Positions 23,815 to 61,993 are shown, counted from the first letter of the stretch. The stretch: 64,000 nt of DNA from Balanoglossus misakiensis (GCA_040954595.2 CM082586.2:7843337-7907336), one strand, 5' to 3'. Numbers and translations: made by a program. Notes: generated by a model not told the origin, from the sequence alone.

Positions 23815-26120
23815 GAAAGAGGAGAGTTGATTCATCCAAACTTTGTAAGTAAAGAAGTAATGTGAGATATTCTTTGAGCAAATTATTTTATAGTGATGTA
23901 TACTTCATTTGTATCAAAGACAAAATTATGGAAATTGAGATTTAGTTATATAAATACAATTTTTATCCTGATAGTCAATGCCGCAACTGAGGGCAGTCAT
24001 CATATGATCAGTTTATTGGCATTTATTAACGTCTACAGATTATTTTAAGATGTTTCCTTATCAATGTTTTATTTTATTGTTCTATGATTTTTAACGAAGG
24101 GATCTCTGTTACTGGTTAGAAGCAACATACAAAGTCTCTACGCATACGACCATTTCCATGTCATCTCGCTGTTAAGATGTGTAATACACACGCAAAATAT
24201 AAATGACACATACAGTCTTTGACCAATATTTTCAATAAAAGTCTAACCAAATTAAAGTTTTTGAGTACAAATTTTTTAAGAAAGCGGCGACTGTAGCTGA
24301 AATCCACCGTAAATGCAAAAACTTGTAATGTTATAATTTAATTTGTGCCTGGCATCCTTGATAAATGAAAGACATGCTGATAAACATGCATTTCAGAAGT
24401 GATGATCTCTTATCTGACCACATATGTTATAATCAGATGGCCAGATTAAGCAAAATATACATAAATTTCTAACACATGTAAATGTTTACTGGTATCGTAT
24501 GCCAACCGTATCTCCTAGCAGCATAAAGGTAACAGCGCTGGTGTTAGGAAATGGCACGATAACATTTATAGACCTTTTTGTCTTACTTGGGAGATGACGT
24601 TAATGTTGTGATTTTCTGTATTGTATATGTTTCTGATTCTGGTATTTTTATTAAAATAGACGGCGCCGAAGCAGCCAATAATGGACATGAACGCACAGCA
24701 GGAAATACTCAAGGTAAGGTGATCAAAACCCTTAGACGTGTCTACAGATGACAAGTACATTTAGTAACATAGCTTTGATCAATGGCAGTTTATTTGTATA
24801 ACTATATCATTTATTGGAGGATGTATGTGTGTATTATTCCACTTATTGTCTATTTTGTTCTGTTCACAGGAAAGCAGATAGTTGATTCATCAAAACGTGG
24901 GTGGTATGTTGGTAAGTATAACTCTGCACAGTTATGTATTTATGTACCGTATGTATGTACCGTATGTATGTATGTATGTATGTATGTATGTATGTATGTA
25001 TGTATGTATGTATGTATGTATGTATATGTATGTATGTACGGTATGTATGTATGTATGTATGTATGTATGTATGTATGTATGTATGTATGTATGTATGACA
25101 TTACTGTGGTTAACTGAGATATAAATATTATTCCATATAGGGTCAGTTTATAACATATTGAGGTAACATTGGCATGCGAAATATGCGTTTCTTGGTATGC
25201 TACTTACAAATGTTCTGTTACGCTCTTTCTTTCCAGGCTTGTGGAACAAATGTAAGTATTACTCTGCACAGTTTAATGTATGTATGTATGTATGTATGTA
25301 TGTATGTATGTATGTATGTATGTATGTACCCCGGTATGTGGAAGAATATTGGTTTTATTACTTTTTCTCTTATATACTGCATTTTACCTGCTTTGTTCTA
25401 TTCACAAAGGTTAACTAAACAAAAACACAAAGACCTTTGTATTTTCATAGGCAAAGCTTTTAAGCAGACAAAGATATATCTCTCGCTCTTTTCAAGAGAC
25501 AGATTTTAAACTGTTTAATTGTCATGTATAGCTGTACTTTATTTTGCTGTCTTATCTATGTTAAATTTCTGTAACCCCCTTGCATATGGGCCGGTGGCCT
25601 TGGAACGCAATAAACGATTGATTGATTGATTGATTGATTGTTCTATTCACAGGAAAGAGGAGAGTTTATTGACCTGCCTTGACATGTGATATCTTGCAAG
25701 GTATCGTGGAGTTTGGAATGTGGTCTACTAGCTTTTGACTTTAGTAAAAATGTGTGTGATGAATACAAATCATTTGTCACATCAATGTTATGTCAATTTT
25801 AATTTTTGGTCACTCGGAAGCATTACAGCATTCTATTATTTTTGCCGTAACAAATTTTGAATGTAAACCTTGATTTCTTTCAGGCTACTATTGCTACATA
25901 TGGGACCGAGTTTGAATAAAGGACACCGGTGACTGTAGGAAGCACAATGGCATAAATGAAATGGAGTCATTTTACTCATGTATTCTATCTAGTCCTGTAA
26001 TTACTGTATCATTCAAAATATTCATGTCAGTTTCATAGTTGATTTAGAGTTCTTGGCTACCATATATGTATTTAGTCTTTCTTTAGCATTTGTGTAATCA
26101 CCCTTTTTATGTTGGGACTA
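23815..26120 (+). pseudogene. Micro-exon peptide precursor gene, copy 1 (5'-truncated); exons 23815..23844, 24660..24713, 24870..24911, 25237..25251, broken exon at 25653, terminal exon from 25884
   Basis: GT-AG exons of 30, 54, 42 and 15 nt, all phase 1, read xKRRVDSSKL-YGAEAANNGHERTAGNTQ-GKQIVDSSKRGWYV-GLWNK. They are homologous to exons of the 48.6-61 kb gene. No signal-peptide exon was found upstream. Confidence 0.7.
25407..25637 (+). mobile_element. 5'-truncated retroposon 3' end with (ATTG)n tail and 14-bp TSD
   Basis: TTGTTCTATTCACA at 25393-25406 and 25638-25651; AATAAA is followed directly by (gatt)n. Confidence 0.7.
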
Positions 26121-26547
26121 GTCAAGTAATAAACAGATAATGCATGATCAATATTGTTTGTTCAGTCTATGTTTAATAATGCATTGTACAAAGGTGAACG
26201 ACGAGCATTCTAGGCTAAGGAGTCTTTGTTGGCAGTGTGTATCTTCTAAAACGGTACTGACCGTGCGAGTTTCCATCGCTGAGAAAATTCTTGTTTGTAC
26301 TCTTTTCCTGGTCTTTCTGTATTGCCTTTATTTATATATCTCTTACCTTACTTCACCCAATTCCAACCATTTGTAGCTATTTTGGGTTTTACAATAACAC
26401 ACTGAATCTGTAGAAAATATTGGAGATTATACCCATCCATTTGAATTGGTAAAAATAAGCCATTTTTCGCAAGATATTTCATTGGTAATTGTCTGAGAGA
26501 GTGTAGTTATACTACCATCGTAACCGCATTCAAGAGGCTGATGATAA

Positions 26548-27068
26548 GGGTGACGCTTTTTTTTATTTGTTTCTCATCTCCAGAGGAATAGTCAGGCAGG
26601 GCGGGCGGGCGAAATGAAAAAAAAAAACGTGTACCAAAAAAAAAACCTGTTTCAGTTCCATGTTTTATCCATACAAACAAATGTGTAGGCCTATTTGTTT
26701 CTGTTCAATGTTCTGGCTGTTCAGTCATTGCAATTTCTTATCTTTCAGTCCCGTGTATTGTGCTCTCTGTCCTTTTAGTCACTATAATTTCTTGTCTTTC
26801 TCTTTAATGCTCTGTCCTTTCATTCTCTACAATTTCTTCCCTTTCCTCCGGCCTCGATGGCTTCAGCCATGGTCCGACACGACCGCCATGATGAATATGA
26901 CGTCATATTTGCAAAATCTCACAATTAGCCGTTGGGGCGCTGTTGCTAGGATGATCACCTCAGGCTCAGAGTCGGCGCAAATAAAACAGTTTTTTTTTAT
27001 TTTCATGTCGGAGCTGAAATTTACGGTCGGTCGGGAGATGAGAAACACAGAAAATAAAAACGTCGCCC
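26548..27068. mobile_element. MITE with GGG(T/C)GACG..TTTCTCATCTCC TIRs and TAA/TTA flanks (Harbinger-like)
   Basis: taa|gggtgacgcttttttttatttgtttctcatctcc ... ggagatgagaaacacagaaaataaaaacgtcgccc|tta. Confidence 0.7.
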
Positions 27069-28995: not shown

Positions 28996-29215
28996 TTAAT
29001 TCTTCCTGAAATTGACAAGTCAGGTGAATGGCTTCTCATTGGAACAGACCACAGTACAAACTTTGAGAAGTGCAGGTGCAGTGGTTTTCTAGGTCTAGGG
29101 TGACAAAGAATTAGAATGAAAAGGAGGAATAACCGATAACGGGTAGGGATAAGGGACCCACCAGCCCCAATGCTATCAGAGCATATAAACATCAAATGAA
29201 CATGTAGTACTTTAA

Positions 29216-29564
29216 AGGGACAAAGTCTCTCTCTCGCTGCCCTTTTTCCATTAATCATGTTTGATTCAAGACACCGCTCATGTTATTCTACATGTGGATA
29301 TATAGAGAATCAACATTCAACCACACACAACTTCCATCCCGTTTGTAGGATATGGTAGTAAAAATAGCGCCAAGATGAATAAATGGTAAACACCGATTAT
29401 TCATTTTGGCGAGTTTTTCTTTCTCGTGTCTATAAGTTGGATGGAATACGTGTGCGGTTGAATGTTGATTCACTATATATCCACATGTAGAATAATATAA
29501 AAGGTGTCTTGTATCAAATATAATTCATGGAAAAAGGTCGGCGAGAGAGAGAGACTTTGTCCCT
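29216..29564. mobile_element. Kolobok-type MITE, copy 3
   Basis: Same AGGGACAAAG TIRs and TTAA TSD. Confidence 0.8.
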
Positions 29565-30053
29565 TTAATAAGTAGCCTTGGTCAATGTTTGAAAACAGAA
29601 GCTTAAGACACAAAACATGATTAATCAAAATGTTATCTGACATAAGCTTGAGAAGAGAATTTGCCAGCACCAAAGATTTACTGTCCACTTGAAATGTTTG
29701 CCTCGACAGGTAGGTTACCAGTTAAAGTCCAAATAAGTAACCTCGGTCACTGTTTCGCTCCGAAGAATTCAAAACGAAAATAACCTACCAATGACTCGAG
29801 CTACGTATATAGGTCACACTTTAGGGAAATCCCCTTTATATCAACCAATTCGCGGGTTCCGAGTTACCGAAACAGGCCACCTTGGCCGCGTGAGGGCGTA
29901 TCAATGACGTCATTATAAGTACAAAGTGCATGGTCCGATGGGACCAAAATTCAAAATGGCGGCAGTGCGTGTGTGATCGATCGTGATCACTTCTGCTTGC
30001 GACTCCTTACACCTGTTTATTTAGCATTATTTTGACAAAAACACTGCCTGAAA

Positions 30054-37989: not shown

Positions 37990-38638
37990 CTATATAGTAC
38001 TCACTCACCAATGTGGAAGGACGGACGGACGGACAAATGAACGAACGAATGAATGAAGCCCTACACGTTGACATACGGGACATCCCTCACGCACTGAAGG
38101 CATCCATAAAACGTGGCAGCCGTATGTTCTCCCAAGCAGAGAGTGAATACAAAGAGTGGGATGTCGCCCACCATTCCAAAGCATTGTTTCATGTCTGACT
38201 TAATATTTTATCTTGAGCCAGGTTATCGAAACTCCACTCTATCACTATTGTTCACAAAGAGGGGCATAACATGGATATGAATATCCATGCATAACGCTTG
38301 TCCTACACCCACGGTGGTCTTTGATATCACTTTGTAACATAAAGCCAGACTCAATCGTTACGATAACGGCCACAATTCAACTGGTGAAGATTTATCCCAA
38401 ATTATTAGTCCCATAGAATGATATTTATTCACAGAATTTTGACACAGCATGGAAAGAATATCACATATATTGTCAATACAAGTAATGGTGACTTCACTTA
38501 TGCGTGGTGCCCACATGATTAATTACCCCAACAAACAAAAGGTGAAATATTAAGTCATGCTGTCATACGCAAGTATCTCAGTGGGCGATGATCTCTCATC
38601 CGATCACATACCTCTCAATCAGATGAAGAAAGGACATC

Positions 38639-38644
38639 TATAAA
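38639..38644 (+). promoter_or_regulatory. TATA box of micro-exon gene copy 2 (equivalent at 48518-48523 for copy 3)
   Basis: TATAAA 60 bp upstream of caacATGATG in both paralogs. Confidence 0.6.
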
Positions 38645-38698
38645 TTGCGACCACCTGTAGATGTTCACTAGAATTGTACACCGAGATAATCAACCAAC

Positions 38699-41430
38699 AT
38701 GATGAAGGTATTATTGCTGACGATTATCCTCGCTTGTGTGTGTGTTGTTCAGCCATCATCTCTCCATGAAGAGCAGACAGCCAACATTGAACATCCTGGT
38801 AAGCTATCAACATATGATATTCATCAGAACTTTTGACACATCTTTTGACTATCTTTCTGTCGAATCATTTCCTGAGTTCATCTTAACGTGCAGACAAGGT
38901 TCGAGCATCCATTAAGAAGACGCATAACTCTATATCTTTCGGACTATGCACCAACGTACAGCATCTGGTGCACAAAAACTTTCCACGAGCTCGGCCATTA
39001 CACCGTGACGTGACACCAACATGTCTTGTACACTCTACACGATAAATCACACATAAAGGTGTTAGGAACTAACAAAATATCTCAATACACTGTCAACTAA
39101 CATAGACAGTATTGATGGGTACAGTCTGTGTTGCATTAAAGTCTTACACAGGTGGTGATATATATTTTGCATTATGTTTGTATCTGTTTTCCCGCTTGTA
39201 ATATAGTTTTTTATTTATTTATTTTTCAAAATAGATGCATCCGAATTAAAAGGGTATGGAAAAGATCACGTTGCAAGAACAAGTAAAGGTAAAGTGATAA
39301 TGATTGCTCTGTATTAAATTGAGATTAGTGGTTTCTTTCATTCATCACCATCAGTTATTTAAAGGTATACGGTCACCTCCAATTTACATACGTCCATATA
39401 TGTCAGAAATGCCGTATTTGTGTGTTCTTAAGAACATATGGTGGCGCTCTTTTTTCGCGTGTGCCACCCACTGAAAATCTGTGATTGGCTAGATCTCAAT
39501 TTGTCATGGTTACTATAGCTATATTTGCATAGGTGACCGTATACCTTTAATCAGTTAATATTCAAATTAATTGTAAACACCTGACTTCAACAATATAGTA
39601 AACGTTCAAGTTTTATTCGTATGACACTACACACTGTCAAACTCTTGCATACAGCCATGGTGTAAAGCGTTTCATATTTGATGACATATGCTCCCAGACT
39701 GGGCTATGGTTGTTGTAAAAAGTGGTAACAGTTCATGTTATCAACAAACTAAGAGATTTGTGTACACACCACAGTGCTGCTCGCGCACGCGTAATATGTG
39801 TTTGATAATTTGCTTGCAAAGAAAGCTACCGAAGACCGTTGCACACGAATGAAATTTGCTAAGCAAAATTCCTCTGACTTTTTGCACAGCTTATTTCTCT
39901 TGTGTGCACAGCCTTAAATTTGACATTAATGTCGTGATTTTAGTTAAATATAGACTTTTTTAGCTGATATAAACAATATTACATATATGGCAAGTTTATT
40001 ACATAACGGGGTAACATGTGGACGTCTTTGCATGCAAAATATGTGTATCTTGGTCTGTTTCTTACAAATATCCTGTTATTCTCTTTCTGTCCAGATGAGT
40101 GGAATACAGGTAAGTACACAGTTATGTATGTATGTATGTATGTATGTACCGGGGGTATGTATGTATGAATGGATGGATGGATGGATGGACGGACGGATTG
40201 ATGGATGTATGGATGGATGTATGGTTGTATGTACGTGAATGATAAATTTTCGTGATCTACACAAGAGCCAAAAAATAATCATGATAATAAATAGTCCCAA
40301 AAGAACAGTGTCTACCAAAACAATAGAATATTAATCAGAGATAAAGAGAACTGAAAATTAATCGTCCCGAAATAGTTGCCTCTGTTGATGTCCAGAAAAT
40401 TTCCTGTCATGAAAATTCCCATTTTACAATATGGATGGATGTGTGTACAAATAGTTACCTCAAATACGACAACCGCAAATACCAAAACACATGTGAAGGG
40501 ACCATACAAAAACAATTAATGATATAACATACACTAACATTGCAATGGTTATATTTAAAAAAACAGCAAGACAACATCAATCCGAAACAAATCAAATGCA
40601 GTCGACAAAACAGCTGGCCAAGTCGACCAAAATATAGCATTGCATTCACCTTGGTGTCGGACATAAATACCTCATTCTCAGTCAATACATGTGAATTGAC
40701 AATGAAACTCAACACCAGCTTATGAATCATTTGCAGCAGCAGGCCAAATAAAAAATACGTTCTGTTCCGATTACCCAACCTTCCCCAATTTTAGCCAGCC
40801 GACTCGGAACTTTTAGAGCTTCCTAATCCGGAAGTAAAAATAACCATGTCAAATATACAAAATTTATTAAAATTGCGAGAATCACGCAAGGACTATGACA
40901 CCATTCTTCTACACTACGGTGGCCAAGTATTTTTAAAAAATTGCAAAATAAAAAGTCCCCACCTACCTATCCTATTTTTAAAAAACATGCAATCGGAACA
41001 GCACCCATTTTTTTTATTTGGCCTCAGCAGAAAGTGAAGTGGCATTAATTCTTGTTGTATTTATCTTTTTCTCACCAGATTGGGGTGGTAAGTATTGAAA
41101 GGCTTTTCCATGATGGACGGATAGATACATGAATGGATGGTTGGGTGGATGGATGGATGGATGGATGCACGGAGTAAAACAATATCAATACATTTGCATG
41201 TCCCCACAGAGAATGTGGATGTCTGGGCAGGCGAAATATACATTTCTTGGTCTATTATTTATAAATGTTATTATGCTCTTTGTTTCCAGATGAGTGGAAC
41301 AAAGGTAAGTCTTATTCTGCACAGTTATGTTTGTATGTACCGTAGTTATGTATGTATGTACCGTAGTTATGTATGTATGTATGTATGTATGTATGTATGT
41401 ATGTATGTATGTATGTACATTGTATGTATG

Positions 41431-41464: not shown

Positions 41465-42174
41465 GGTAAAGTTAATCATTCACCTCAATCACAATTTCTC
41501 TGAAGAGCTGATGATTATGTTTATCAAAATACACCAATGACGTCGTAAACATGATATAATTGACTCAAAGTGATATTTGTGAAGTACATATGTGTATAAT
41601 TTTATGAAAATGCACACACAGATGGATTATTTTGGCATCCTATTACAATATAGGCACATACATTTCAATAATGTATTTGTTGCGGTATATAAAGAATACC
41701 CTTGTCATTTCTTGTTCAGTTTGAACGGCGTACCTTGTTCTGGGCACTAACCACTTATACAGAAATTACACTGTCCATTTTGGAGACACTCTACACAATT
41801 GACGTAATCTATATAAAACAAGATATATGGTTATTTTGCAGTATCATTTAAGAAACTGAAATGCCCATAAATTCTGCTAAACATTTGTCAACATACATCT
41901 GCAACAAAAATTAACCACAAAACACTGAAAAGGGTGAGGAGCATCGGACTTTTTCGTAGTGTTTTGGCGAATTGTCCAATACATGCAGCTTGGTGGGGGT
42001 CCAAGATAGTTGGAAGAGCCAAGCTAATGAAATGATGATCATGTTTTATTTTGTTGTCAAATGTAAAGTACTATCAGTTAGCACGTATTGAAATGAACAC
42101 TAGCTTACATTTGCATGCGCAGAAATTCTTATTTTGTCACGTTCTTCTCTTTCTTTCCAGTTTTTTGGTTATAA
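38699..42174 (+). CDS. Micro-exon secreted peptide precursor, copy 2 (68 aa); join 38699..38798, 39235..39288, 40095..40109, 41079..41087, 41290..41304, 42161..42174; terminal exon from 42801
   Basis: [68 protein letters not shown]. Every exon has a YAG acceptor and a GT donor. Internal exons are 54, 15, 9 and 15 nt, all phase 1. Confidence 0.8.
39363..39546. mobile_element. Short Kolobok-type MITE (AGGTATACGGTCACCT TIR, TTAA TSD); duplicated at about 49241-49402
   Basis: ttaa|aggtatacggtcacct ... aggtgaccgtatacct|ttaa. Confidence 0.75.
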
Positions 42175-43092
42175 GGTTTGTATTACTCTACTCAAACTTT
42201 CCTAATTTTCGAACATCTTATTGTTATTGTTTGGCTTGTTAAGACATAATCGTAATTAGTCAACTGTGAAGCGTAAGTTAAGCTCCATAGATAGCAGATA
42301 TGTACAATGTCATTAGATGGTCAATAATATATATGAGATGCTGAAGCAAGAAAACTCAATCGCTGATTGTACAAACTCTTAAAGGTAACATGTCACAGCG
42401 CAGGTATCTCATGATACTTTCTTAATTACCTTAGCAACGGTTTGCTGGCCAATCAGAACAAGCGAAACTATATAAAACCATAATACTGGTAGATGTAGAG
42501 TTTAACGGAAATTGTAATTTTGCGCCTTATCACATGTGCTGGTTGTCCTGTGCCACATGAGAATGTCCATCTAAAATGCCTTGACATGTCATATCTTGCA
42601 AGGTCTCGGGGAGTTTGGAATATGGTCTACTAGGATTTGACGTTAGTAAAAAAATGTTGGTGTGTGTGTGACAAATACCAATAATTTGTCACATCAATGT
42701 TATGTCAATTTTCAATTTCAATACTGGGTAACTCAGAAGCATTATAGCATTGTATTTTTTCAGCGAACATATTTTGAGTGTAAACCTTGATTTCTTTCAG
42801 GCGAATTGCTACATATGGGACTGAGTTTGAATAAAGGACACCGGTGACAGCAACAAGCACAATGGCATTAATGAAATGGAGTCAAATTACTCGTGTATTC
42901 TATCTAGCTCTGCTAGTATCATTCAAACGAGTCATGTATCAGTTTCATTGTTGATTAAGAATTCTAGGCTACTGTATACATTTTAGTGTTTTCTTTTAGC
43001 ATTTGTGTAATCATCCTTTTTGTGTTGAAACTAATCAAGTAATAAACAGGTAATGCATCATCAATATTGTTTATTCAGTCTATATTTAAATA

Positions 43093-47378: not shown

Positions 47379-48577
47379 TTACTGTGGTTGGCAATTGTGG
47401 ACGTGTACAGCAAATTGAGCCATCGGCTTAGGGTGATTTTTACTTCATGCGCATGACCACCGATGCATTCAGGCGAAGGCTGATCAATTTTTTCCTCGCA
47501 GGTGACATCGACTATGTACCATGGATAGCACCCATAGACGAAAATAAATCAAGGTTGAATTTCAAACACATTAACCATACACACACACAAAAATACAGTA
47601 CACTGGGCATTTAGAGACGACGTAATTTCAGTGTATGATTGAGGTATGATGACTGGAAAGGTATGGAACAGAATGCCCCAAATTCACATCCCTTAAAGGT
47701 ATATGGTCATCATTTCCTAACTGTTACACTGGAAAATACAAATATAGCCAATCACAAATGCCCAATGGCACCCGCGATAAAACATGGTCATTTGGACACT
47801 AGGTCACGCGATTTTGACCATAAAAAGGCATGTGTGTATTAGAGGTGACCGTATATCTTTAACTGCTCAGTCACTAATGTGGAAGGACGGACGGACGGAA
47901 GGACGAATGAACGAATGTATGAATGAATGTAGCCTTTACACGTTGACATATGGGACATGCTTTCACTCAATGAAAGGAACTATAAAACGTGGCAGCCATA
48001 TGTTCTCCCAAGCAGAGAGTGAATACAAAGAGTGGGATGTCGCCCACCATTCCAAAGCATTGTTTCATGTCTGACTTAATATTTTATCCTGTGCCACGTT
48101 ATCGAAACTCCACTCTATCACTATTGTTCACAAAGCGGGGGCATAACATGGATATGAATATCCATGCATAACGCTTGTCCTACACCCACGGTGGTCTTTG
48201 ATATCACTTTGTAACATAAAGCCAGACTCAATCGTTACGATAACGGCCACAATTCAACTGGTGAAGATTTATCCCAAATTATTAGTCCCATAGAATGATA
48301 TTTATTCACAGAATTTTGACACAGCATGGAAAGAATATCACATATATTGTCAATACAAGTATTATGGTGACTTCACTTGTGTGTGGTGCCCACATAATTA
48401 ATTACCCCAACAAACAAAAGGTGAAATATTAAGTCATGCTGTCATACGCAAGTATCTCAGTGGGCGATGATCTCTCATCCGATCACATACCTCTCAATCA
48501 GATGAAGAAAGGACATCTATAAATTGCGACCACCTGTAGATGTTCACTAGAATCCTACACCGAGATAATCAACCAAC

Positions 48578-51500
48578 ATGATGAAGGTATTATTGCTGTC
48601 GATTATCCTCGCTTGTGTGTGTGTTGTTTGGCCATCATCTCTCCCTGAAGAGAAGACAGTCTTCAGTGAACATCCTGGTAAGCTATCAACATATGATATT
48701 CATCAGAACTTCTGACACATCTTTTGACTATCTTTCTGTCGAATCATTTCCTGAGTTCATCTTAACGTGCAGACGAGGTTCGAGCATCCATTAAGAAGAC
48801 GCATAACTCTATATCTTTCGGACTATGCACCAACGTACAGCATCTGGTGCACAAAAACTTTCCACGAGCTCGGCCATTACACCGTGACGTGACACCAACA
48901 TGCCTTGTACACTCTACACGATAAATCACACATAAAGGTGTTAGGAACTAACAAAATATCTCAATACACTGTCAACTAACATGGACAGTATTGATGGGTA
49001 CAGTCTGTGTTGCATTAAAGTCTTACACAGGTGGTGATATATATTTTGCATTATGTTTGTATCTGTTTTCCTGCTTGTAATATAGTTTTTATTTATTTAT
49101 TTTTCAAAATAGATGCATCCGAATTAAAAGGGTATGGAAAAGATCACGTTGCAAGAACAAGTAAAGGTAAATTGATAATAATTGCTCTGTATTAAATTGA
49201 GATTAGTGGTTTCTTTCATTCATCAGCATCAGTTATTTAAAGGTATACGGTCACCTCCAATTTACATACGTCCATATATGTCAGAAATGCCGTATTTGTG
49301 TGTTCTTAAGAACATATGGTGGCGCTCTTTTTTCGCGTGATTGGCTAGATCTCAATTTGTCATGGTTACTATAGCTATATTTGCATAGGTGACCGTATAC
49401 ATTTAATCAGGGGATGAAAACTCAAATGAGTATTCAATCCGATCCCGGACAAGCCCCCAATTTGTTACAACCCGCAGGCCGTCCGAGCCAAAAATATGCG
49501 GAGAATAGAGAGGTCAATTTACCTGACCGGGTGGCTTGTTTTACACCCGAACCGACCAACAGGCCGCAGCAAAAGAAATGGTCAAAGACAGCACACGTAC
49601 AACAAACCAGTCTATCTACAGTGTTAATTTAATTACAGATACGAGTAAATTTCACAAATATGTTAACTAATATTTACAATAAAGTACAAACTAAACTAAC
49701 GAGCGTGACCAGGTAAACAAACAAAAAATCCCTACCACGTTCAAAGTCTCACCAACAGTTCGGCGTCTCGACGCACGACGATACTGGCGTTTCACTCAAC
49801 GCACAGCAATTCTGGCCTTTCTGTCCGTTTTACGCCGGGGTACAAAAAAGACAGCCACGTATAACCTCAAACTGCATATCCACCGTGTAGTCCACAGACA
49901 GCCACGTATTACCTCCAATGCAGTTCCAAAGTGACACGGAGACGCGCTCCCTCAGGACGGCTCCCAAATCCCACGCGGCGTTCTCGAAAACCTCCACCAC
50001 GACTTCACAAGTCCCTTCGACAGTGTCAATCCTCAGCTACCACAGTAGACAGGCACACTCCGTACAGTGGGCTCCCAAAACTCCGCGACAATGCGACGGC
50101 ACAGCTACCAGACCAGAATCAAAATGAGCCACACGACAACGTGGCACTGGGGTGTCTTTTATACGACCGAAACTAACACCTGGTCACGTTAATATGTTAA
50201 ATAAAGAAATTAACATAGGTGCACCTGGCCACGAAACAAAACAAAAAAGAAACTTCATCACATAGGATTCTGAAACTCTTGCATTCAGCCATGGTGTAAA
50301 GCGTTTCATATTTGATGACATATGCTCCCAGACTGGGCTATGGTTGTTATAAAAAGTGGTAACAGTTCATGTTATCAACAAACTAAGAGATTTGTGTACA
50401 CAACCACAGCGCTGCTCGCGCACGCGTAATACTAATAGTTACCAGATGAAGTTTCATGGAGGTCGCGGTCATGTCACATCTGCCTATTTATTAATTTATG
50501 GAGAGTCTCAGTTGGCTGCTTACAAGTGACCCGGCTGGGCTGTACTAAATATCGGCAGACACCCTAATTATCATAGATTATCAATTATTTGCACAGACAA
50601 TGACATATAATGTTCTACTTTTTTCTTTTCAGGCCAATGGGGTTGTGAGTATGGCATTCTTTTCATTTTGAAAGCATGGAGTGTGTGTGTGTGTGTATGT
50701 CTGTCTATCTGTACATGTATGTAGGTGTGTGTATGTTGATTTGTATGTGCCTCTACAAAGAGACAACCAATTGTATGCACAAAATCGGTGAAGATCTAAG
50801 ACGCAAATTATAACATGCAATAACAATATAATGTATATGAAAAGGGAGATCTTTCCTTTTGAACGCCAAAGTCAAGATAAGAACTTTATTTTCGGTCAAA
50901 TTTAAAATCGCACCTACATGTATCAATAAATATACACACTGACAGTAACACTAATTTCTACAGATTATAAATTAATTGAATCATCAGAAACTAGCAATAA
51001 TAATTGTTGTCATGATCTTCTCTTTTCACTTTGCATTGTTTGCATATTAGAAAGTCGCCTGTATGTATGTATGTTTATGTATACACATACATGTACATCT
51101 CTGATCACGAGGAGTATAGTAGGTATAGGCAAAACCAGTCATATGATTACAAAAGTATCTGTTTATTGGTCTTGACGAAAAGGAAACAAGGGTTTCAATC
51201 TCATCTTGTACATCCTTTCATCGGGTGACAACCGAATCATCCAGTTTTTAACCCGCAGCAGTTGCATACATGTAGATGTTTTTTTAACAAATATCACCCT
51301 CCAAACTTCAGGATATGTTTTAGAGTCCCATAATCAAGCCATAATACCATTGAAAATGGCAATGGGTCTGCTTGACAAAAATCCCATTCATACACAGATA
51401 TTTTACAACTGTTACAACTGCTTTTTTAATGCGTTGTTCAGTTTTATTCCTTTTCTCTCAGTGGAAGATGTTATCCATATGTCAGAGAACATGCAGCGAC

Positions 51501-53382
51501 CACGCTGGACTGGCTGTCAGATGGAATAACCCTACTTACTAATTAGTGATAATGGTTTATTTAGATGGAAAATTTATAACTTTTACTGTCACTTAATACT
51601 TAAAGGCACGTAAGCTGCAACTGGATAAAAAATCAATGTTTTAAATAATCTCATATATGCTTTTAATTATATCTATTAAATGCTATTTCATGATAATATA
51701 TCAAGCTCAACACTTATTTATGACAAAATGGCCAAAAATTAAAGAAAAACGAAAATTCCTGAAATTTTTAAAAAAGTGCAATATTGCAATGAAAAATGAC
51801 AATCTGATGTCTCAGTGGTGTACATTTACTTCCATGAGCTCAAGTGGATGAGATCATGTTTTGTTTATGAAGTTTCACAACCGGAAATGCGACATTTTCA
51901 TTGTTTCTTTCATTTTCCCACGGTGGCGGCCATAATCGCTTGCGGCAAAGCTTTATTATTTATCTGGTTAAAACTTGCATATGCACTCATATTTAGGGTT
52001 TATAATGCTTGTGTATAGTTCACTGCCTTCATCTGCATGGACTTATGGTAGTGCAGTGTGAAACAAAAATTATGAAAATTATCCCAAAAGTTACAGCTTA
52101 CGTGCCTTTAAAGGGACAAAGTCTCTCTCTCGCTGCCCTTTTTCCATTAATTATGTTTGATACAAGACACTATTAATGTTATTCTACATGTAGATATATA
52201 GTGAATCAATGTTCGACCACACAAAACTTCCATCCCACTTGTATGAAATGAGAGTAAAAACTCGCCCAAAATGAATAAATGGTAAAGAATGATTATTCAT
52301 TTTGGCGAGTTTTTTCACTCTCCTGTCTATAAGAGGGATGGAAGTTGTGTGTGGTTGAACATTCATTCACTATATATCTATATGTAGAATAACAAATTGT
52401 GTCTTGTATCAAATATAATTAATGGAAAAAAGGGCAGCGAGAGAGAGACTTTGTCCCTTTAATACAGGAACAACCAAATTAAACATTGTCAAACATTTCA
52501 AGAAGCGGAAACTTGTATTAAAATGTTTCTTGTGCTCTTTCTCTACAGATCCGTGGAATGACAGTAAGTAACACTATGCACAAATTGCACAAATATTAAA
52601 ATTTCTATGTACTGGTGCTTGTGTGTGTGGGTATGTATGTATGTATGTATGTATGTATGTATACATGCATGTATGTAAATTACCTAGGGAGGTTGAAGTT
52701 TTGATGGATAGTTTTCTTGTTGGCACTGATTTATCAGTTGATTGATTTGCTTACTCATTATCATATTTATTGCCTATTTATTTACTATTTTTATGAATTT
52801 GATCATTTTTATGAGGACCCTGATGTAAATTAAAATTTGTTTCTTGTGATCAGGTTACCCTCTTTCAATGAAGTATGACAATAATGATTGAGGTTTCATC
52901 AAAGAGACTACCCTTATTTGGAAAGCTTTGCTCAATGTCATTCACCTCTTCATTGCTAAAAGCAATGTACACATCAATAATATATGACACATTTGCTGGA
53001 CTATGCTGTCAGATAGAGAGCCAAGTAGACCAAGCACAATTTAAGGGAAAAATTTCACTCCCTCATGGCCAATCAATATGTATTGTCCTCGTGCAGAAAC
53101 TTATATTAAAATGTTTCTTCTGCTCTTCCTTTACAGACCCTGCACGGGAAGGTGAGTTTTACTCTTATGAAACAAGTATGTATGTATGTATGTATGTATG
53201 TATGTATGTATGTATGTATGTATGTATGTATGTATGTATGTATGTACCGGTATGTATGTATGTATGCATGTATGTATGTCAAGAAGGGTAGTAGCTACTA
53301 CCCTTCTTTATACTCCGCTCTACTCTTGTATTAAGCACTTTGGATTGGACCAGTTGAATCGCATACTTCGTATGTATGTATG

Positions 53383-53413
<31 letters not shown>

Positions 53414-56400
53414 CGTTTGCATGCTTAAACTTTATGTTAGTTACCTATCATATTGTCTTCTTGATCTAATCACAGGAAAGAGAGAAGATTTGTCAAAGCG
53501 TTGTAAGTAATACGTTTTTTTTTATTTGGACAGACAGACACATACATACATACATACATACATACATACATACATGTGTCTCTTGGTCTACAAAACAGTG
53601 GAATTGATATCATAATACACATATACATGCACACAAATGATTATAAACCACTTTAAAGCACCAACACATAAGTCATCGCTGACATTGCACAGGATGAAAT
53701 GTCAGCGATTGTCTGCATTGAGACAATGTACCGGTCAGTATACAGCGACCGATGCAGGACCGGTTGTACAAACTAGCCAATCAATAACGATAGCTTAAAG
53801 TGTTAATCCTTCATTATAAGTCGAAACATATTGAGACGATCAACCAAATTGAACTGATCATGAATGTCATCCAAAGGCAGAGACTTGTGTTAATCGTTTG
53901 GTCTGCTCTTTCTATACAGATCCCTGGGGGGAAGGTATGTATGTATAATATCTACAACTGGACTCACTCATGAGAAGACAGGCTGGGTTACATGCATATA
54001 TACAGGTGGTGGATTGTTTGATGGTTGGTAGTTTTGCTTAACATGGTGATATGAATGTGCAGGGAGATGAGTGGGGAGATACTGCCTATTGTTTCTCCAG
54101 CTGCCCTTACTTTATATTCAGCTCAGCTTTATTATCGAGTACTTTGTATTGGACTAGTCAAACCACATATTGTATGTACCATATGTATGTATACCTTATT
54201 ATCGCCCACTATGAACATCAAACTTCAAGACATTATTCAACTGTTTCTTTTCACCACCTATGTAACTTATAACAGATTGAATAAACCGCATTGCCATTAT
54301 TTTAGATTATAAATGCAACAAGTTTTAATGATCTGTCGATCGCTGTATCTTTCATGTAAAAATCACAATTACTGGTACCTGAGTACAGTGCGTAGTACAG
54401 AGATGACATGAAAATGTTATGGTTCCATGACTTTCGCCTTATCGCTTACCAAAATCAACAGTAGAAAAACTTGGGAAATATGACAGCAGAAACAATGTGT
54501 CACAAATGTGTTAGAGAATTGACAAGCACATGCAGTATATGAGTTTGGTTAAAAAATTGCATATTGTTCCTTCTAGCTTTGACTAGCTTTGGTTTTCAAA
54601 ATCAAAACGGTGCCGTTTCATTTGCATGTTTTGAAATATTTTGTCCCACCTCTTCTAACAATAAATATGAAGACTGTTCATATGATAAACACAGAATGCA
54701 TTCAATATTTTTCTGTGTACTGGTATACTCATAGAAAGCAGTCATGTAAACGAAGATATCAAATACAGAAATATCATTGGATATGTCATATTGGCTATGC
54801 AATTATCAATCATTTTAACGAGCAGAAACTTGTATAAACAAATGCTTCTTTTCTTCTTTTCCTTTTCTACAGACATGTATTATCGTAAGTAGACCAAGCA
54901 CAATTTAAGGGAAAAATTTCACTCCCTCATGGCCAATCAATATGTATTGTCCTCGTGCAGAAACTTATATTAAAATGTTTCTTCTGCTCTTCCTTTACAG
55001 ACCCTGCACGGGAAGGTGAGTTTTACTCTTATGAAACAAGTATGTATGTATGTATGTATGTATGTATGTATGTATGTACCGGTATGTATGTATGTATGCA
55101 TGTATGTATGTCAAGAAGGGTAGTAGCTACTACCCTTCTTTATACTCCGCTCTACTCTTGTTAGAGAATTGACAAGCACATGCAGTATATGAGTTTGGTT
55201 AAAAAATTGCATATTGTTCCTTCTAGCTTTGACTAGCTTTGGTTTTCAAAATCAAAACGGTGCCGTTTCATTTGCATGTTTTGAAATATTTTGTCCCACC
55301 TCTTTTAACAATAAATATGAAGACTGTTCATATGATAAACACAGAATGCATTCAATATTTTTCTGTGTACTGGTATACTCATAGAAAGCAGTCATGTAAA
55401 CGAAGATATCAAATACAGAAACATCATTGGATATGTCATATTGGTTATGTAATTATCAATCATTTAACGAGCAGAAACTTGTATAAACAAATGCTTCTTT
55501 TCTTCTTTTCCTTTTCTACAGACATGTGGGGTTATCGTAAGTATTACATGGCGCAAAAAGTCGTATGTATGTATGTATGTATGTATGTATGTATGTATGT
55601 ATGTATGTATTCAGCAAGTCTGTTAATCAATAACAACACATTCTGTTTATACCGCATGCACTTGTATTGAAAATGTTCTATTCTGTCCTTCCTTCCAGAA
55701 CCATGGGCTTTAGGTAAGTACATGTATTATTGTGTTTTAACACTTTATATTAAATTTTGAAAGTCTGGTGTATGACCCAAATATAACCATAGCTGTGTAT
55801 TGTATAAGAGCAAAATTTCCCTCTATAAACACCAATTCACAAAAAAATGTTGAACAAATCAAACATTGGTTTAAAGTGGCATAACGTAACTCTTGCATTA
55901 AATATACATCCCTCACTATTAGTACATAATGATAGTAACAACAAGATTGTCAATCGATCGCAACAACAGAAACTTATTATTATTTATTTATGTATGTATA
56001 AATGCATGTGTGTTTGTACGCGGGCAAATTTCTTTTTATTATTTTATGTGTCATTATTGCATGTATTACCTACTCTGTTCCAATCACAGGAAAGAAAAGA
56101 GTTGATTCATCCAAACGTGGTAAGCAATGAAAAATTAATGTTAGATATTATTTGTTAAGCAAGGCATTTTATGTGAAATCTGCAAAGATCACTACTTAAG
56201 GGATGGCACAAAATTGTGATACATTATTTACTCGCAATTTGCAATAATAACTTTAACATTCTCTGTTGCCTTATTAGAGCGAAAATAAATGGGTGATAAT
56301 AAAACTTATTTTGTGTTGTGGTCTTCTCTATTGATTATGTTTCTGATTCTAGCATTATTCATTAAAATAGATGGGGTTGAAGCAACAATGCATGGATATG

Positions 56401-58164
56401 AACGAGAAGCAGGAGAAACACAAGGTAAGGTGATCAAAACCCATTGACCTGTATATTGAAGATGAGTACTTTTAGTATCATAACTTCGTTCGACTATAGT
56501 TTCATTCAATAGCACTTTTTTAGTATGTGTTATTTACATGGTTAAATTTGAAAATGTTTCCATTATACAGAAAGGAAACATCATAATTCAATACTCTGTT
56601 CTAATCACAGGAAAGAAGAGAGTTGATGCATCCAAACCTGGTAAGTAATGAAAAAGTAATGTTAGATATTATTCGTTGAGCAAAGCATTTTCTTATTATG
56701 TGCACTTTGTATATTTTAAAAATAACAAGTTATTGAGGTGTCATCTTCGTCTTAACAATTTGCAATGGATTTTTGAAAATAGCAAAAGGTATGATCACAA
56801 ATTTGTGTCTCACCCCAATATGATGAAATACAGATTTTTGAGACATCATTGGGAATGTTTCATTTACTTATCTAAATATGAGATGTTGTGATTTTATTCG
56901 TGTATGCATGGATGCATTTTTATGCATCTTTGTATGTGGGCAAACATTATTTATTACTTTGTGTGTTATTGTTTCATGCATTACCTACTTTGTTCTAATC
57001 AAAGGAAAGAAGAGAGTAGATTCTTCCAAACGTGGTACATGTAATTAATGAAAAGTAATGTTAGACATTATTCGTTGAGCAAGGCATTTTTATGCAAAAT
57101 CTGCAAAGGTCACTAATTAGGGAATGTACCGGCAATTTGCAATGATAACTTTAACACTCTCTGTTGCCTTATTAGAGCGATAATAAATTAGTGATAATAA
57201 AACTCATTTTGTGTTGTGGTCTTCTCTATTGATTATGTTTCTGATTCTAGCATTTTTTCATTAAAATAGACGACGTCAAAGCCACCATGCGTGAATATGA
57301 ACGAGAAGCAGGAAAAACACGAGGTATGGTGATCAATGCAATTACATTATGTTCATATCTTTACAGGATCACACTAAAATACAAGTTGACCTTGATCACA
57401 ATGTGCGCCTTTTTTTCTGCTGTCTATCTAAAATGTCCAGAAATGCACTTTGCCTAAATTGTATTTACCAATTCTGGTTGTCAGAGCTTAAACTTTGCAA
57501 CTTCCATTGTGTTCATGGTAAAAAAAACTGGCAACTTTTTGTGAATTGCAATTTCAACTATGTATGCGTTATATGACCAATCTATAACCATGATTTTGTT
57601 AGCCCAAAATGTAAATCACTCACTATTGGTCTATAAAATTGAAAGTTCCTCCAACTACAACAGAATGTCAATAATATGCACAATCAGAAACATGTACTTA
57701 GAAATGTAATGTTCTGTTCTTTCTCTCTAGATGAGCCTTGTAAGTATTACTCTGCATTTTATGTATGTATGTATGTATGTATGTATGTATGCATGCATGT
57801 ATGCATGTATGTATGTATGTATGTATGTATGTATGTATGTATGTATGTTGTGCGTATGTAGGTATGTATTCATGTATGTTATGTGTGTAGGCATGTATCC
57901 ACCTGTATGTGTTATGTTGGACAAATTGTACGCACAAGCAATTCAAATGCAATCCACAACATACCATGCTTCAATAAAGGCGTGAGATATAAACCCCTAA
58001 ATATTATCCAATACATATTGACAGTAACACATACCAAACATCATATAATAAATCATTAAATAAGCATAAATGTGCATTAACACTTTTCATTATTTTCTCC
58101 TCTCCAGATTGGAATGGTAAGTATTGGGAGCTGTTCCATTTGTAATGTATTGTTCTATATATAA

Positions 58165-58195
<31 letters not shown>

Positions 58196-59084
58196 TGTAT
58201 GTATGTATGTATGAAGGGGTGTATGTATGTACAATGTAAAATAATACACTTATCACTCATGAAAATAATATCCGAACTGCACAGATCGCGCGCACAGGTC
58301 ATGAAGTTCTGTCATATTGGTATACATGTCCCCACAAATAATGTGGATGTCTTTGCAGGCGAAGTATCATGTATCTTGGTCTATACTTGTAAACATTATG
58401 ATTTGCTCTTTCTTTCCAGGTTTTTGGGATGATTGTAAGTATTACAATGTGTTTATATTGCCTGAAGACCTAAAAGTTAAGTTAACCAAAATACATAAAT
58501 GCCGTCGTAAATATGACGTTGTTCTGCAATTCCCTCAAAATGTTCGCTGTGATGTACATAAGAGCTTGGCAATTTTGTGAGAATGCACACACACACATGT
58601 ACTATTGCAAAATTGACACATTTTAGTCACATTTCAGGATACTTGTTTTATAAGGTATATAAGGACAATTTCAATCATGGGGGAATTTCCTTTGGTTAGA
58701 TGGGCACATCCTGCTCTGGACACTACCCACTAAAACAGAATATACATCATCATAAATAATATTTCCATAATTGACAGCCTCTACATAATCGATGCAGATC
58801 TGGTCTTCCGCAATATCATTTAACTAACAAAAATGTCCCTAAACATTTGACAATAGCCACGAAATACTGAATTAGCTAGGTGGAGATCATCATTGTACAG
58901 TATTTGATAGAGTTTTGGCCAAGTGTGCGATAGTTACATAAGGGTGGGAGTCCAAGATTATTTGAAGATCCAACCTTTCCAATTGATGATCATGCTGTGT
59001 TTTGTCGTCAAATGTATGTTCTTTCACTATAAGTATGTATCCTGTTGTTTTTTCTCTTTCTTTACAGATTTGTGGATTTTTTAA
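48578..59084 (+). CDS. Micro-exon secreted multi-peptide precursor, copy 3 (180 aa if all 20 exons are used); exons 48578..48677, 49113..49166, 50633..50644, 52549..52563, 53137..53151, 53476..53502, 53920..53934, 54873..54884, 55001..55015, 55522..55536, 55699..55713, 56090..56119, 56371..56424, 56611..56640, 57005..57034 (weak sites), 57270..57323, 57731..57739, 58108..58116, 58420..58434, 59068..59084; terminal exon from 60750
   Basis: The spliced frame is open: [180 protein letters not shown]. All 18 internal exons are multiples of 3 and phase 1, with AG/GT ends. Confidence 0.8.
49410..50261. mobile_element. Insertion of about 850 bp, possibly a solo LTR
   Basis: GC-richer block absent from the paralogous intron of copy 2. 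Its ends are gggatgaa.. and ..ttcatcaca, a degenerate TG..CA with a short inverted repeat. No clear TSD. Confidence 0.4.
51604..52107. mobile_element. Kolobok-type MITE (AGGCACGTAAGCTG TIR, TTAA TSD)
   Basis: ttaa|aggcacgtaagctgcaact ... agttacagcttacgtgcct|ttaa; a partial relative lies at about 60050-60490. Confidence 0.75.
52112..52458. mobile_element. Kolobok-type MITE (AGGGACAAAG family), copy 4
   Basis: TTAA at 52108-52111 (shared with the preceding MITE) and at 52459-52462. Confidence 0.8.
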
Positions 59085-61993
59085 CGGTGTGTATTACCTT
59101 TTTAAGTTTTCTTAATTTCGAAAATCCTTTATTGTTTGGCTTATTGTGATAATTAGTCAACTATGGAACATAAGGTCCATAGGTAGCATATATACATCGT
59201 CATTTGATAATCAAGTTTAATATAAGAATACTTAAGCAAGAAAAGTCAGCAATAAGTCTTACAAAGTTAGGATGATATGTCACAACGCACTAACTTTGTG
59301 CTCATATCTTTCCTCGATCACACTTAATCTAAATTATATTATTTCATTCTACCATCCCCCATTCTGATTGGACGCGAGCTCAATCCAGCGATGCCAAAAT
59401 ACTCATATAGCACTGCTAAAGCGGGGCCCTGAACTAGCATGCAGCAGCAAAAAATGTGCCGTTAAACCAGTCGTGTGGGATTAAACCAAATAAAAAAAAT
59501 AAAAATACTGTTGAATTAACGGATGTTTTATTTTTGAACTGCTCTGTGGGAATATAGGTCACTTTGCCATGCGCGTGCCTGTCTTGTCACTTTTTTTTTC
59601 GTCTGCTTCATGTTTAATGCTCCATCCCGGGCGCTCGTGTTTACATTCATCGTTGCCATGTTGGTTCGCGTTACGGTAACTCCTATTTCTGACGCTGTTT
59701 CGTAAAGAAAATGCCACTGATATGCCACAAAATCAATTGTTGATTTAATATAATAGCAATACTCGATTTGGTTACAATTCGCTCCATATAGCACTCGCCT
59801 ATGTCTCGAATTGTACCCAAATCTTGTGTATACCCGCCTGCGGGTTATTGCTTAAATATAAGTTGAACTTGACCACAATGTGCTGCTATTAGCACAAATA
59901 AACACTAGCTTTCTTCTGCTGTCTACCTAAAATGTCCACAAATGCCCGAGATCTCGCGAGACTTGGTTAATTACTGTAGCAACGGTTCGCTAGCCAATTA
60001 GAATAAGCGAAACCATATGAAACCATAATAGATTTAAAGTTTAAAGTCACATAAGCTGCAACTTTTGGGATAATTATCATTTTTATATGTATTACCATTA
60101 GCCCATGCAGATGTAGTCACTGAACTATAGACAAGTATTGTAACCCCCCAAAAAGTGCATATACAAGTTTTAACCAGATAAATAGTAAAGCTTTGCAACA
60201 AAGGAATATGTAGGAAAATGCAAGAAACAATGAAAACACTACATGGCATTTCATAAAAAAATCATGGTCTCATCCACTAGAACTCATGGAAGTAAATGTA
60301 CTCTGCTGAGACATTGCATTCTCATATTTCCATTCCAATATTGCACTTTCAAAAAAAATTGCAGGAATTTTTGATTTTCTTTATTTTTTTTGCCATTTTG
60401 TCATAAATAAGTGTTTATCTTAATTAAGAGCATATATGGGTTTCATTTAAAGCTTAATTTTTTTTTATCCAGTCGCAGCTCATGTGCTTTTAACATTTGC
60501 GCCTTAACACGCGATCGGCCATATACTGCTTGTCCAGTGCTGCATGAGAATTTCAACTTATAAACTGTCTTCACGTGATACCTCACGGAGTTCAGAATAT
60601 GGTCGAGTAGCATTTGACTTCAGTAAAAAATGTTGATGTGTGTGTCATGAATAGAAATCAATTATCTCATCAATGGACACTCAATAGCATTATAACTTTC
60701 TATTTTTTTCGCCTAACAAATTTTAAATGTAAACTTTGACTTCTTTCAGGACAACTGTTATATCTGGGAACAAGTTTAAGACTGAATAAAGGACACCAGC
60801 GACTGCAGCAAGCATAATGGCATTTGATTAAATGGAGTCATATTACTTATGTATTCTATCTAGTTCTGTTACTGTATGATTCATAATTATATAGTCATGT
60901 ATCAATTACACAGTTGATTTAGAGTATCAAGGCTAGCATATAAGTATTTAGGGTTTCTTTAGCATTTGAGTAATGATCCTTTTTATGTCGAAACTTATAA
61001 AGTAATAAAAAGGTAATGCATCATCAATATTGTTTATTCAGTCTATATTAAGTAACAGCTATTTCGCATATTTAACCAATTTATACACTGTACAATGTAC
61101 ATGTATTTCCAATTTTGGGCAACCAATAGGGTCAAGGCGAAGTTGCTTTACAAACATGCACCAATATTGAACTTGAATGTGTTGCAAAATGTCTAGACGT
61201 CTGTGTCGCTCTATGAAAATACATTAAGCTAAACAAATATGCTATGATTCAAAATACTTTGACAATATATACAACTAATCTGCCCTCCACTATTATAGCC
61301 AAATGTACATGTACCGCTCGTAGCTCTTTCTGTATTGCCCTATATATCTATAAATCTCTTACTTTACTTCAACCAATTCCAACAATTTATAGCTATTTTG
61401 AGTTTTAAAATTTTATTTTTGGAAACACGTTCACTCACACAATCTGTCATCATTGCTGCTTGCTTTGCAGACATCTACGAATGGTTTGAATTAGCTTCCT
61501 TTTAAATGGTGACAAAACATACATTGTAGATTTCAGTTAACATACTGAATCTGTAGGAAATATTGCAGATTATATTATATCATGCTACCGTCCGCAATTC
61601 TGATTGGACGAGAGCTCAATCCAGCGAGGCTAAAATACTCAATACACTGCTAAAACGGGCCCCTGAACTAGCATACGGCAGCAAAATTGTGCGGTTAAAC
61701 CACAGTCGCGCGTGTTTAAACCAAATAAATAAAACAAAAATACTGTTGAATTAACGGACGTTTTATTTTGAAACTGCTCTGTGGAAATATTTGTCACTTT
61801 GCCACGCGCGATGCCTGTCTTGTCACTTTTTGTCGTCTGCTTCATGTTTAATGCTTGATTGTCGATATAATATAATAGCAATAACCCCCGCCTCAGTCTG
61901 GTATACACTCGATTTGGGTACAATTCGCTCCATATAGCACTCGCCTGACGGCTCGTGCTATATGTCTCAAATTGTACCCAAATCTCGCGTATA

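Follow-up and report, generated by a model that had tools for sequence, protein, structure and literature searches.

Can a cluster of very small exons, some only 9 nucleotides (nt) long, encode a family of secreted peptide precursors in the marine invertebrate Balanoglossus misakiensis? The question is raised by a stretch of 64,000 nt (GCA_040954595.2 CM082586.2:7843337-7907336), the whole of which was analyzed and is referred to here as the window, and in which a sequence-only reading had proposed three tandem paralogs sharing a scaffold but carrying different peptide cassettes between positions 23815 and 61010. Our results point to three tandem micro-exon paralogs, predicted to encode secreted precursors that are likely cut at KKR/KR sites into short Trp-rich peptides, and we hold this interpretation to be reasonably probable. 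The window has a G+C content of 32-44% and an observed-to-expected CpG ratio of 0.70, and is eukaryotic, with animal-type introns and several transposons.

Self-BLAST of the window resolves three collinear units, arranged in tandem on the + strand, as had been proposed. The terminal exon and 3' untranslated region (3'UTR) are common to all three copies at 80-84% identity, with values of 83.9% between copy 1 (25675-26176) and copy 2 (42577-43089), 80.5% between copy 1 (25807-26170) and copy 3 (60674-61046), and 79.6% between copy 2 (42731-43086) and copy 3 (60679-61049). Together with a highly similar 5' tract in copies 2 and 3, these matches bear out the common scaffold. Alignment furthermore establishes that copies 2 and 3 have the promoter region, the signal exon, an identical 54-nt exon 2 and the terminal exon in common; as regards promoter and signal exon the scaffold is thus a property of these two copies, neither being shared by copy 1. 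Mis-assembled haplotypes were considered, and the gene bodies, non-collinear and measuring 4.4 kb in copy 2 (seven exons in total) as against 12.5 kb in copy 3 (21 exons in total), indicate that the three units, as they stand in the assembly, are true paralogs and not haplotypes.

The predicted elements of copy 1 are the following:

23815..23844, + strand, dibasic-type exon, xKRRVDSSKL, with the second basic pair decayed to KL
24660..24713, + strand, 54-nt spacer exon, YGAEAANNGHERTAGNTQ
24870..24911, + strand, 42-nt exon in which a dibasic cassette is fused to a core, GKQIVDSSKR-GWYV
25237..25251, + strand, core micro-exon GLWNK
25884..26133, + strand, terminal exon, coding for CYYCYIWDRV plus TGA (25884-25915), then 3'UTR, with AATAAA at 26128

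Those of copy 2 are:

38639..38645, + strand, TATAAAT box, 60 nt upstream of the ATG
38699..38798, + strand, exon 1, signal-like, donor in phase 1
39235..39288, + strand, exon 2, 54 nt, identical to exon 2 of copy 3
40095..40109, + strand, core DEWNT
41079..41087, + strand, core DWG (9 nt)
41290..41304, + strand, core DEWNK
42161..42175, + strand, core VFWL, with an in-frame TAA at 42172-42174 and a weak donor, gtttgt
42801..43046, + strand, terminal exon, 3'UTR if the VFWL exon is included, with AATAAA at 43041

Those of copy 3 are:

48518..48524, + strand, TATAAAT box
48578..48677, + strand, exon 1, signal-like start
49113..49166, + strand, exon 2 (54 nt)
50633..50644, + strand, core GQWG (12 nt)
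52549..52563, + strand, core YPWND
53137..53151, + strand, core NPARE, no Trp
53476..53502, + strand, dibasic exon GKREDLSKR (27 nt)
53920..53934, + strand, core YPWGE, donor gtatgt
54873..54884, + strand, core DMYY (12 nt), no Trp
55001..55015, + strand, core HPARE, exon and flanks identical to those at 53137
55522..55536, + strand, core DMWGY
55699..55713, + strand, core QPWAL
56090..56119, + strand, dibasic exon GKKRVDSSKR
56371..56424, + strand, 54-nt spacer exon, DGVEATMHGYEREAGETQ
56611..56640, + strand, dibasic exon GKKRVDASKP
57005..57034, + strand, dibasic exon GKKRVDSSKR, with weak sites (acceptor aag, donor gtacat)
57270..57323, + strand, 54-nt spacer exon, DDVKATMREYEREAGKTR
57731..57739, + strand, core DEP (9 nt), no Trp
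58108..58116, + strand, core YWN (9 nt)
58420..58434, + strand, core GFWDD
59068..59086, + strand, core YLWIF, with an in-frame TAA at 59082-59084, 19 nt, donor gtgtgt
60750..61009, + strand, terminal exon (3'UTR), with AATAAA at 61004

Three exon classes are apparent, i.e., x-x-W-x-x cores of 9-15 nt, G-KKR-VDSS-KR cassettes of 27-30 nt and acidic spacers of 54 nt. The inventory given by the sequence-only reading holds in its particulars: copy 2 carries four cores (DEWNT, DWG, DEWNK and VFWL) and no dibasic exon, copy 3 carries twelve cores and four dibasic exons (YPWGE at 53920 was recovered by a relaxed scan, and the dibasic exon at 53476 by reading through 53300-54000), and copy 1 carries GWYV and GLWNK, the former within the 42-nt exon. 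To this account are added the 54-nt spacer exons, two in copy 3 (56371 and 57270) and one in copy 1 (24660), which match exon 2 in length and in their 'aaaatag' acceptor.

Micro-exons in the window are far above chance. Candidates had to combine an acceptor rich in pyrimidines with a donor close to consensus and a length divisible by three, and were counted against 100 first-order Markov simulations. Seventeen passed this filter on the + strand and four on the - strand, compared to a simulated mean of 2.9 (maximum 8); for those of 15 nt or less the counts are 16 and 2 (mean 0.6, maximum 3), and for those containing Trp but no stop 12 and 0 (mean 0.12, maximum 1).

The splice sites and the frame are consistent with this result. 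The internal exons of the three copies measure 9-54 nt, mostly 9-15 (eleven are 15 nt), and 27 of the 28 are multiples of three, the exception being the 19-nt stop-bearing exon at 59068. All 28 are joined in phase 1. GTAAGT serves as the donor in 15 of them, and the acceptor is CAG in 21, TAG in 6 and AAG in one; the mean pyrimidine fraction amounts to 0.81, and introns range from 116 to 1904 nt. Exon 1 of copies 2 and 3 (100 nt) encodes MMK, then a run of 14 hydrophobic residues and finally a tail of 16, and ends in phase 1; its best 10-residue window has 9-10 hydrophobic residues out of ten, and a signal peptide is predicted from this residue composition. Exon 1 is followed by five (copy 2) or nineteen (copy 3) phase-1 exons, through which one reading frame runs uninterrupted as far as the stop in the final coding exon. 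When the internal exons of copy 3 are joined, the phase-1 frame contains one stop (the terminal one), compared to 3 and 12 in the other frames. The TATA and AATAAA signals are conserved, with TATAAAT lying 60 nt upstream of the ATG in both copy 2 and copy 3.

In copy 1, once the spacer exon is included, the frame is open from 23815 to the TGA at 25913-25915. Self-comparison of the window returned no homolog of exon 1 or exon 2 for this copy, whose upstream flank (21919-22326, matching 46877-47381) jumps straight to the dibasic-plus-spacer module. A candidate start, 22337-22382 (MDRWQNKILLIIEFI, with a phase-1 donor) joined to 22508-22561 (a 54-nt exon open in phase 1), is compatible in frame yet unconvincing, and may be a product of chance; neither part shows homology to the first two exons of the other copies. 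Decayed remnants of dibasic-type exons lie within the last intron of this copy, at 25395-25410 and 25653-25690, one of them an acceptor with no exon behind it and the other (GKRRVY) containing a stop.

Trp is the most constant feature of the cores. It occurs in 15 of 19, accounting for 15 of about 90 core-encoded residues (hand count), and TGG stands at nt 6-8 in ten of the eleven 15-nt cores, every other position being variable. The retention of Trp each time, as the sequence-only reading had it for its pairs of contexts, does not extend to all cores, since NPARE, HPARE, DMYY and DEP have none.

Exons and their flanks were then compared by class. In every one of the 15 dibasic pairs, the exons are closer to one another (0.63-0.90) than either of the flanks is (0.46-0.82). 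Eight core pairs have flanks that are 70% identical or more; in six of these the exons resemble each other less than the flanks do, with TGG fixed; one pair is equal (the NPARE/HPARE duplicate), and in one (DEWNT/DEWNK) the exon is more alike. It had been asked whether the cores diverge more than adjacent introns, and for Trp cores they do in these six of eight pairs. The related claim that homologous intron contexts hold different cores is borne out by DEWNK and GFWDD, the only case clearly at the level of random sequence: GFWDD is identical to DEWNK or DEWNT at 6 of 15 nt (0.40, compared to 0.42 +/- 0.09 for random 15-mers), whereas its upstream intron matches theirs at 54-57 of 71-74 positions (57/74 for GFWDD/DEWNK). 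It fails for DWG and YWN, which are identical at 7 of 9 nt and thus represent no replacement, the D/Y difference arising from the last base of the preceding exon. On these identities the exon classes evolve differently, and the contrast between dibasic exons and cores is a stronger argument than the difference between cores and introns.

The 'conserved leader' of copies 2 and 3 calls for a different explanation. It lies within the following element:

38000..39796, + strand, high-identity 5' tract shared with 47866-50431, comprising the promoter, exon 1, intron 1, exon 2 and the start of intron 2

Identity is 95.0% over 1568 positions between 38000-39554 and 47866-49410, and 97.5% between 39639-39796 and 50273-50431, the two parts being separated in copy 3 by an insertion of approximately 860 nt (49411-50272). 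Across this tract of approximately 1.8 kb, non-coding sequence differs at 39 of 1378 sites (2.8%) and intron 1 at 5 of 435; exon 2 differs at 0 of 54 (Fisher p=0.40) and the signal part of exon 1 at 1 of 51. Because the introns of the tract themselves differ by only 1.1-1.6%, a match this close in exon 2 and in the signal part is what recent duplication or gene conversion would be expected to leave, and is not evidence of selection. The proposed pattern of a conserved leader with variable cores is supported insofar as exon classes diverge differently. The post-signal part of exon 1 (38750-38798 compared to 48629-48677) departs from its surroundings, which are 97-99% identical, with 8 substitutions in 49 sites against 39 in 1378 for the surrounding non-coding sequence (p=1.2e-4), and all nine changes in exon 1, read from their codon positions, alter the amino acid (seven replacements). 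This hypervariable segment points to diversifying selection, or else to gene conversion over a short patch by a paralog not seen here.

The history of the three copies appears to be tied to a simple repeat. The window contains 13 (TATG)n arrays, every one of which falls within one of the three genes and has the same orientation (23622-25328, 40123-41460 and 52631-58231), and 10 of 16 micro-exons have such an array within 70 nt past the donor when array positions are set against exon coordinates. Most arrays start 14-70 nt past a micro-exon donor, after a conserved intron start, gtaagtattactctgcacag. A single ACAT array was found at 53540. The arrays may drive exon duplication or aid micro-exon recognition, and exon birth and death by unequal exchange at (TATG)n would fit the observed arrangement. 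The duplicated unit would have consisted of an intron end, a micro-exon, an intron start and a (TATG)n array, would have lost or gained codons in frame, and would have diverged faster than its own introns while the Trp codon was kept. Copy 2 looks recombinant, its 5' end resembling copy 3 and its 3' end copy 1, because its 5' tract matches copy 3 and its 3' half (41226-43530) is closest to copy 1 (25171-26310), the 3'UTR being 84% as against 80% identical. Copy 1 would be a 5'-truncated derivative.

Within copy 3, 53023-53329 recurs at 54887-55161 and 54509-54891 recurs at 55159-55543, with 97.7-100% identity, which on this similarity is a very recent duplication, although it could alternatively be an assembly artefact. 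The resulting arrangement, [NPARE ... DMYY][HPARE DMWGY], carries the pairs NPARE/HPARE and DMYY/DMWGY, and DMYY differs from DMWGY by an in-frame 3-nt indel that takes out the Trp.

What these genes would produce was derived by joining the exons in silico. The predicted product of copy 2 (68 residues) consists of the signal, a stretch of 34 residues, and DEWNT-DWG-DEWNK-VFWL. That of copy 3 (180 residues) begins with signal and pro-region, continues as GQWGYPWNDNPARE-G-KR-EDLS-KR and YPWGEDMYYHPAREDMWGYQPWAL-G-KKR-VDSS-KR, and then as DGVEATMHGYEREAGETQ-G-KKR-VDASKP-G-KKR-VDSS-KR, DDVKATMREYEREAGKTR and DEPYWNGFWDDYLWIF. The partial product of copy 1 reads ..KRRVDSSKL, YGAEAANNGHERTAGNTQ, GKQIVDSSKR and then GWYVGLWNKCYYCYIWDRV. 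All four dibasic exons of copy 3 start with G-KKR or G-KR and three end in KR (that at 56611 ends in KP), and Gly stands ahead of the basic site in each intact cassette. Cys is confined to the terminal exon of copy 1, the mature parts of the other two copies having none. The predicted products have only Trp spacing and composition in common, and no conserved C-terminal motif recurs among them.

Cleavage by convertases at basic sites and amidation from Gly are general features of prohormone processing. By this route the signal peptide would direct the precursors into the secretory pathway, proprotein convertases would cleave after KKR and KR, and the Gly ahead of each basic site would supply a C-terminal amide. 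Copy 3 would then release GQWGYPWNDNPARE-NH2, YPWGEDMYYHPAREDMWGYQPWAL-NH2 and the C-terminal DEPYWNGFWDDYLWIF, copy 2 DEWNTDWGDEWNKVFWL, and copy 1 GWYVGLWNKCYYCYIWDRV; such processing would yield peptides of 14-24 residues, acidic and rich in Trp and Tyr. Sulfation of Tyr next to Asp or Glu and modification of Trp are possible. An amphipathic helix in the C-terminal peptides was considered and rejected, the hydrophobic moment not exceeding that of shuffled sequences (p=0.10 and 0.46). Given the rapid divergence of the paralogs and the absence of a recurring peptide motif, we favor a role directed outward (in defence, or as a toxin or pheromone) over that of a conserved neuropeptide, though with low confidence, and this is the weakest of our inferences.

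Several points weigh against cleaved precursors encoded by micro-exons. The splice junctions are in silico predictions, and three exons have weak sites, at 42161 (gtttgt), 59068 (gtgtgt) and 57005 (aag / gtacat). Cores of 9-15 nt provide few sites per identity value, and when pooled over non-overlapping pairs (hand tally) the exon-intron difference of the cores is modest. Furthermore, the exons duplicate one another, so that multiple-of-three counts and pairwise identities are not independent; even so, differences in length among the small exons that keep the frame (9, 12, 15 and 27 nt) argue for coding constraint. Copy 2, lacking a dibasic exon, has R-T-S-K as its sole predicted release site. 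Copy 1 may be a pseudogene, because a start exon is missing and decay has affected two of its basic sites (KL and KQI). No homolog was found with a query limited to the 33-residue exon 1.

The alternative that fares best accepts the micro-exon genes as real and holds that their products act intact as small secreted proteins, as has been proposed for schistosome micro-exon genes (MEGs), and vary mainly by alternative inclusion of phase-1 exons. Such variation is described for MEGs in PMC4350168, and it would be feasible here, as all internal exons are of phase 1-1 and any subset could be skipped in frame; the missing dibasic exon of copy 2 is likewise in its favor. It is nevertheless unlikely in view of the G-KKR-VDSS-KR cassettes, the best-conserved exons of the locus (above their flanks in all 15 pairs), as would be expected if cleavage and amidation signals were used, and of the Gly that precedes the basic site in every intact one.

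It is still less likely, and in our judgement doubtful, that the exons are unexpressed parts of a repeat family linked to a microsatellite, which owes its splice-like edges and open frame to a dead gene (a pseudogene array) or to chance. The exons are sequence predictions, every unit is tied to (TATG)n, no homolog was found with exon 1 as query, and copy 1 has both a missing start exon and decayed exon remnants near 25395 and 25653, all of which would suit such a family. In contrast, the frame of copy 3 is open across 20 consecutive exons with in-frame length changes of 9, 12, 15 and 27 nt, dibasic exons are more conserved than introns, copies 2 and 3 retain an intact promoter, start exon and polyA signal, and exon 1 shows an excess of non-synonymous changes.

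An artefactual origin of the copies in the assembly, through haplotypes left uncollapsed or repeats joined wrongly, is highly improbable, for despite the 95-99% identity between copies 2 and 3 in the 5' tract and the near-identical repeats inside copy 3 (53023-53329 and 54509-54891 recurring), the copies beyond that tract differ in exon number, length and order, their 3'UTRs are about 80% identical and different transposon insertions stand between them, so that at most the NPARE/DMYY-HPARE/DMWGY duplication could be an artefact.

Secreted precursors assembled from micro-exons and cut at basic sites remain the favored interpretation, and the closest parallel in gene design is offered by the MEGs of schistosomes. 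In PMC10526429 and PMC4350168, MEGs are defined by a 5' exon for a signal peptide followed by 10-20 symmetric exons of 6-81 nt, mostly 15; their introns measure 0.1-5 kb, their mature parts evolve fast and their loci are rich in transposons. The present genes resemble them in having a signal exon followed by many tiny symmetric exons (mostly 15 nt or multiples of three), in forming a family with transposon-rich surroundings, and in a mature part that evolves fast relative to the signal. Here the coding region consists mostly of tiny symmetric exons and the 5' exon encodes a predicted signal peptide. According to a 2015 paper (PMC4350168), MEGs 'appear to be restricted to platyhelminths', and among the papers listed by our literature search there was none on micro-exon genes outside Schistosoma.

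In contrast to this structural likeness, no sequence similarity to schistosome MEGs was found with exon 1 alone as query. KKR/KR prohormone-type cassettes and one-Trp modules are not known from MEGs. Exon 1 extended by 12 read-through residues returned no homolog among sequences of similar length, nor, as a two-copy alignment, among longer ones at E<=10, and a HMMER search of 1.84 billion representatives with this query returned none at E<=0.001; all are weak negatives, the query being short. Exact matches to exon 2 in metagenome contigs numbered zero, as did Rfam matches on the window; six peptide motifs had no occurrence in the papers searched, and no family resembling the acidic, Trp/Tyr-rich predicted peptides was found.

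Prohormones and neuropeptide precursors offer the parallel in product: a signal peptide, di- or tribasic bounds, a Gly amidation donor and acidic spacers. Basic sites and the Gly donor are present here, whereas a repeated peptide with a conserved C-terminal motif is absent, and in further contrast the peptides derive from exons of 3-5 codons and the paralogs diverge fast. The proposed comparison with conotoxin precursors holds in logic (conserved signal, variable mature part) and fails in gene structure, given the 7 and 21 exons of copies 2 and 3. As described in PMC3862624, conotoxin genes comprise 2-3 exons, a single one of which holds the entire mature toxin, and have introns of more than 3 kb; they also have Cys frameworks. 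The present genes share with that description the conserved signal and variable mature part, a phase-1 intron after the signal exon and introns rich in simple repeats, but have up to 21 exons and Cys only in the terminal exon of copy 1. The second analogy that had been drawn, to ribosomally synthesized and post-translationally modified peptides (RiPPs), is not sustained: RiPP leaders are recognized by dedicated modifying enzymes, usually encoded close by, and a Pfam scan of 29 open reading frames (ORFs) in the window, each of at least 110 residues, revealed no such enzyme, only transposon-type domains and one PAN domain, the processing signals are KKR/KR of the eukaryotic prohormone type, and the genes are spliced. 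The SpTransformer (Sp185/333) genes of sea urchins form tandem arrays for secreted proteins that are mosaics of short 'elements', associated with flanking microsatellites. Those elements lie within one exon, whereas here each element is an exon of its own with the repeat in the adjoining intron.

The remainder of the window is rich in mobile elements. A DIRS-like retroelement (16075-20527, - strand) has three long ORFs, with a reverse transcriptase (RVT_1) and a phage-integrase-type tyrosine recombinase, and interrupts a segment (14754-15582 plus 20731-20955) with homology to 61312-62955, past copy 3, and to 26312-26550, past copy 1; this arrangement hints at a larger duplicated unit, and perhaps at a lost fourth copy. 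A Harbinger transposon (30036-32273, + strand) carries open THAP and DDE_Tnp_4 ORFs, and among the named entries of the 120 matches listed for its transposase the closest is from Ptychodera flava (61%), followed by bivalves (51-56%), sea urchin (48%) and Saccoglossus and Acropora (43-44%), with no flatworm among them. A YqaJ-like exonuclease ORF (33311-34444, - strand) adjoins a 284-nt inverted repeat (32295-32578 / 32969-33252, 99.3% identity), and the two are probably another mobile element. A palindromic repeat of approximately 360 nt, resembling a miniature inverted-repeat transposable element, occurs in both orientations at 6560-6904, 7636-7991, 29212-29568 and 52108-52462, one of these within a copy 3 intron. 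A further repeat of approximately 450-560 nt (83-96% identity) lies at 37401-37963 upstream of copy 2, at 59332-59863 in the last intron of copy 3 and at 61569-61995 downstream of copy 3. A PAN/apple domain (residues 23-76) was identified in the open frame 13479-14156 (- strand), a likely exon of some unrelated gene encoded on the opposite strand.

It is tentatively suggested, as a possibility rather than a probable outcome, that the MEG design has arisen independently of flatworms in a marine invertebrate, where one-Trp phase-1 modules of 9-15 nt, exon turnover driven by (TATG)n and portable KKR..KR cleavage/amidation cassettes would together form a combinatorial peptide generator. If the genes are expressed, the micro-exon gene design would extend beyond platyhelminths and would be joined to prohormone-type processing, with modules of 3-5 residues, cleavage cassettes and spacers being separate, freely duplicable exons. 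Expression would also make the locus a tractable case for the recognition of very small exons, which here have near-perfect splice sites and mostly (TATG)n just downstream, and for the diversification of peptide repertoires by exon birth and death, beyond point mutation.

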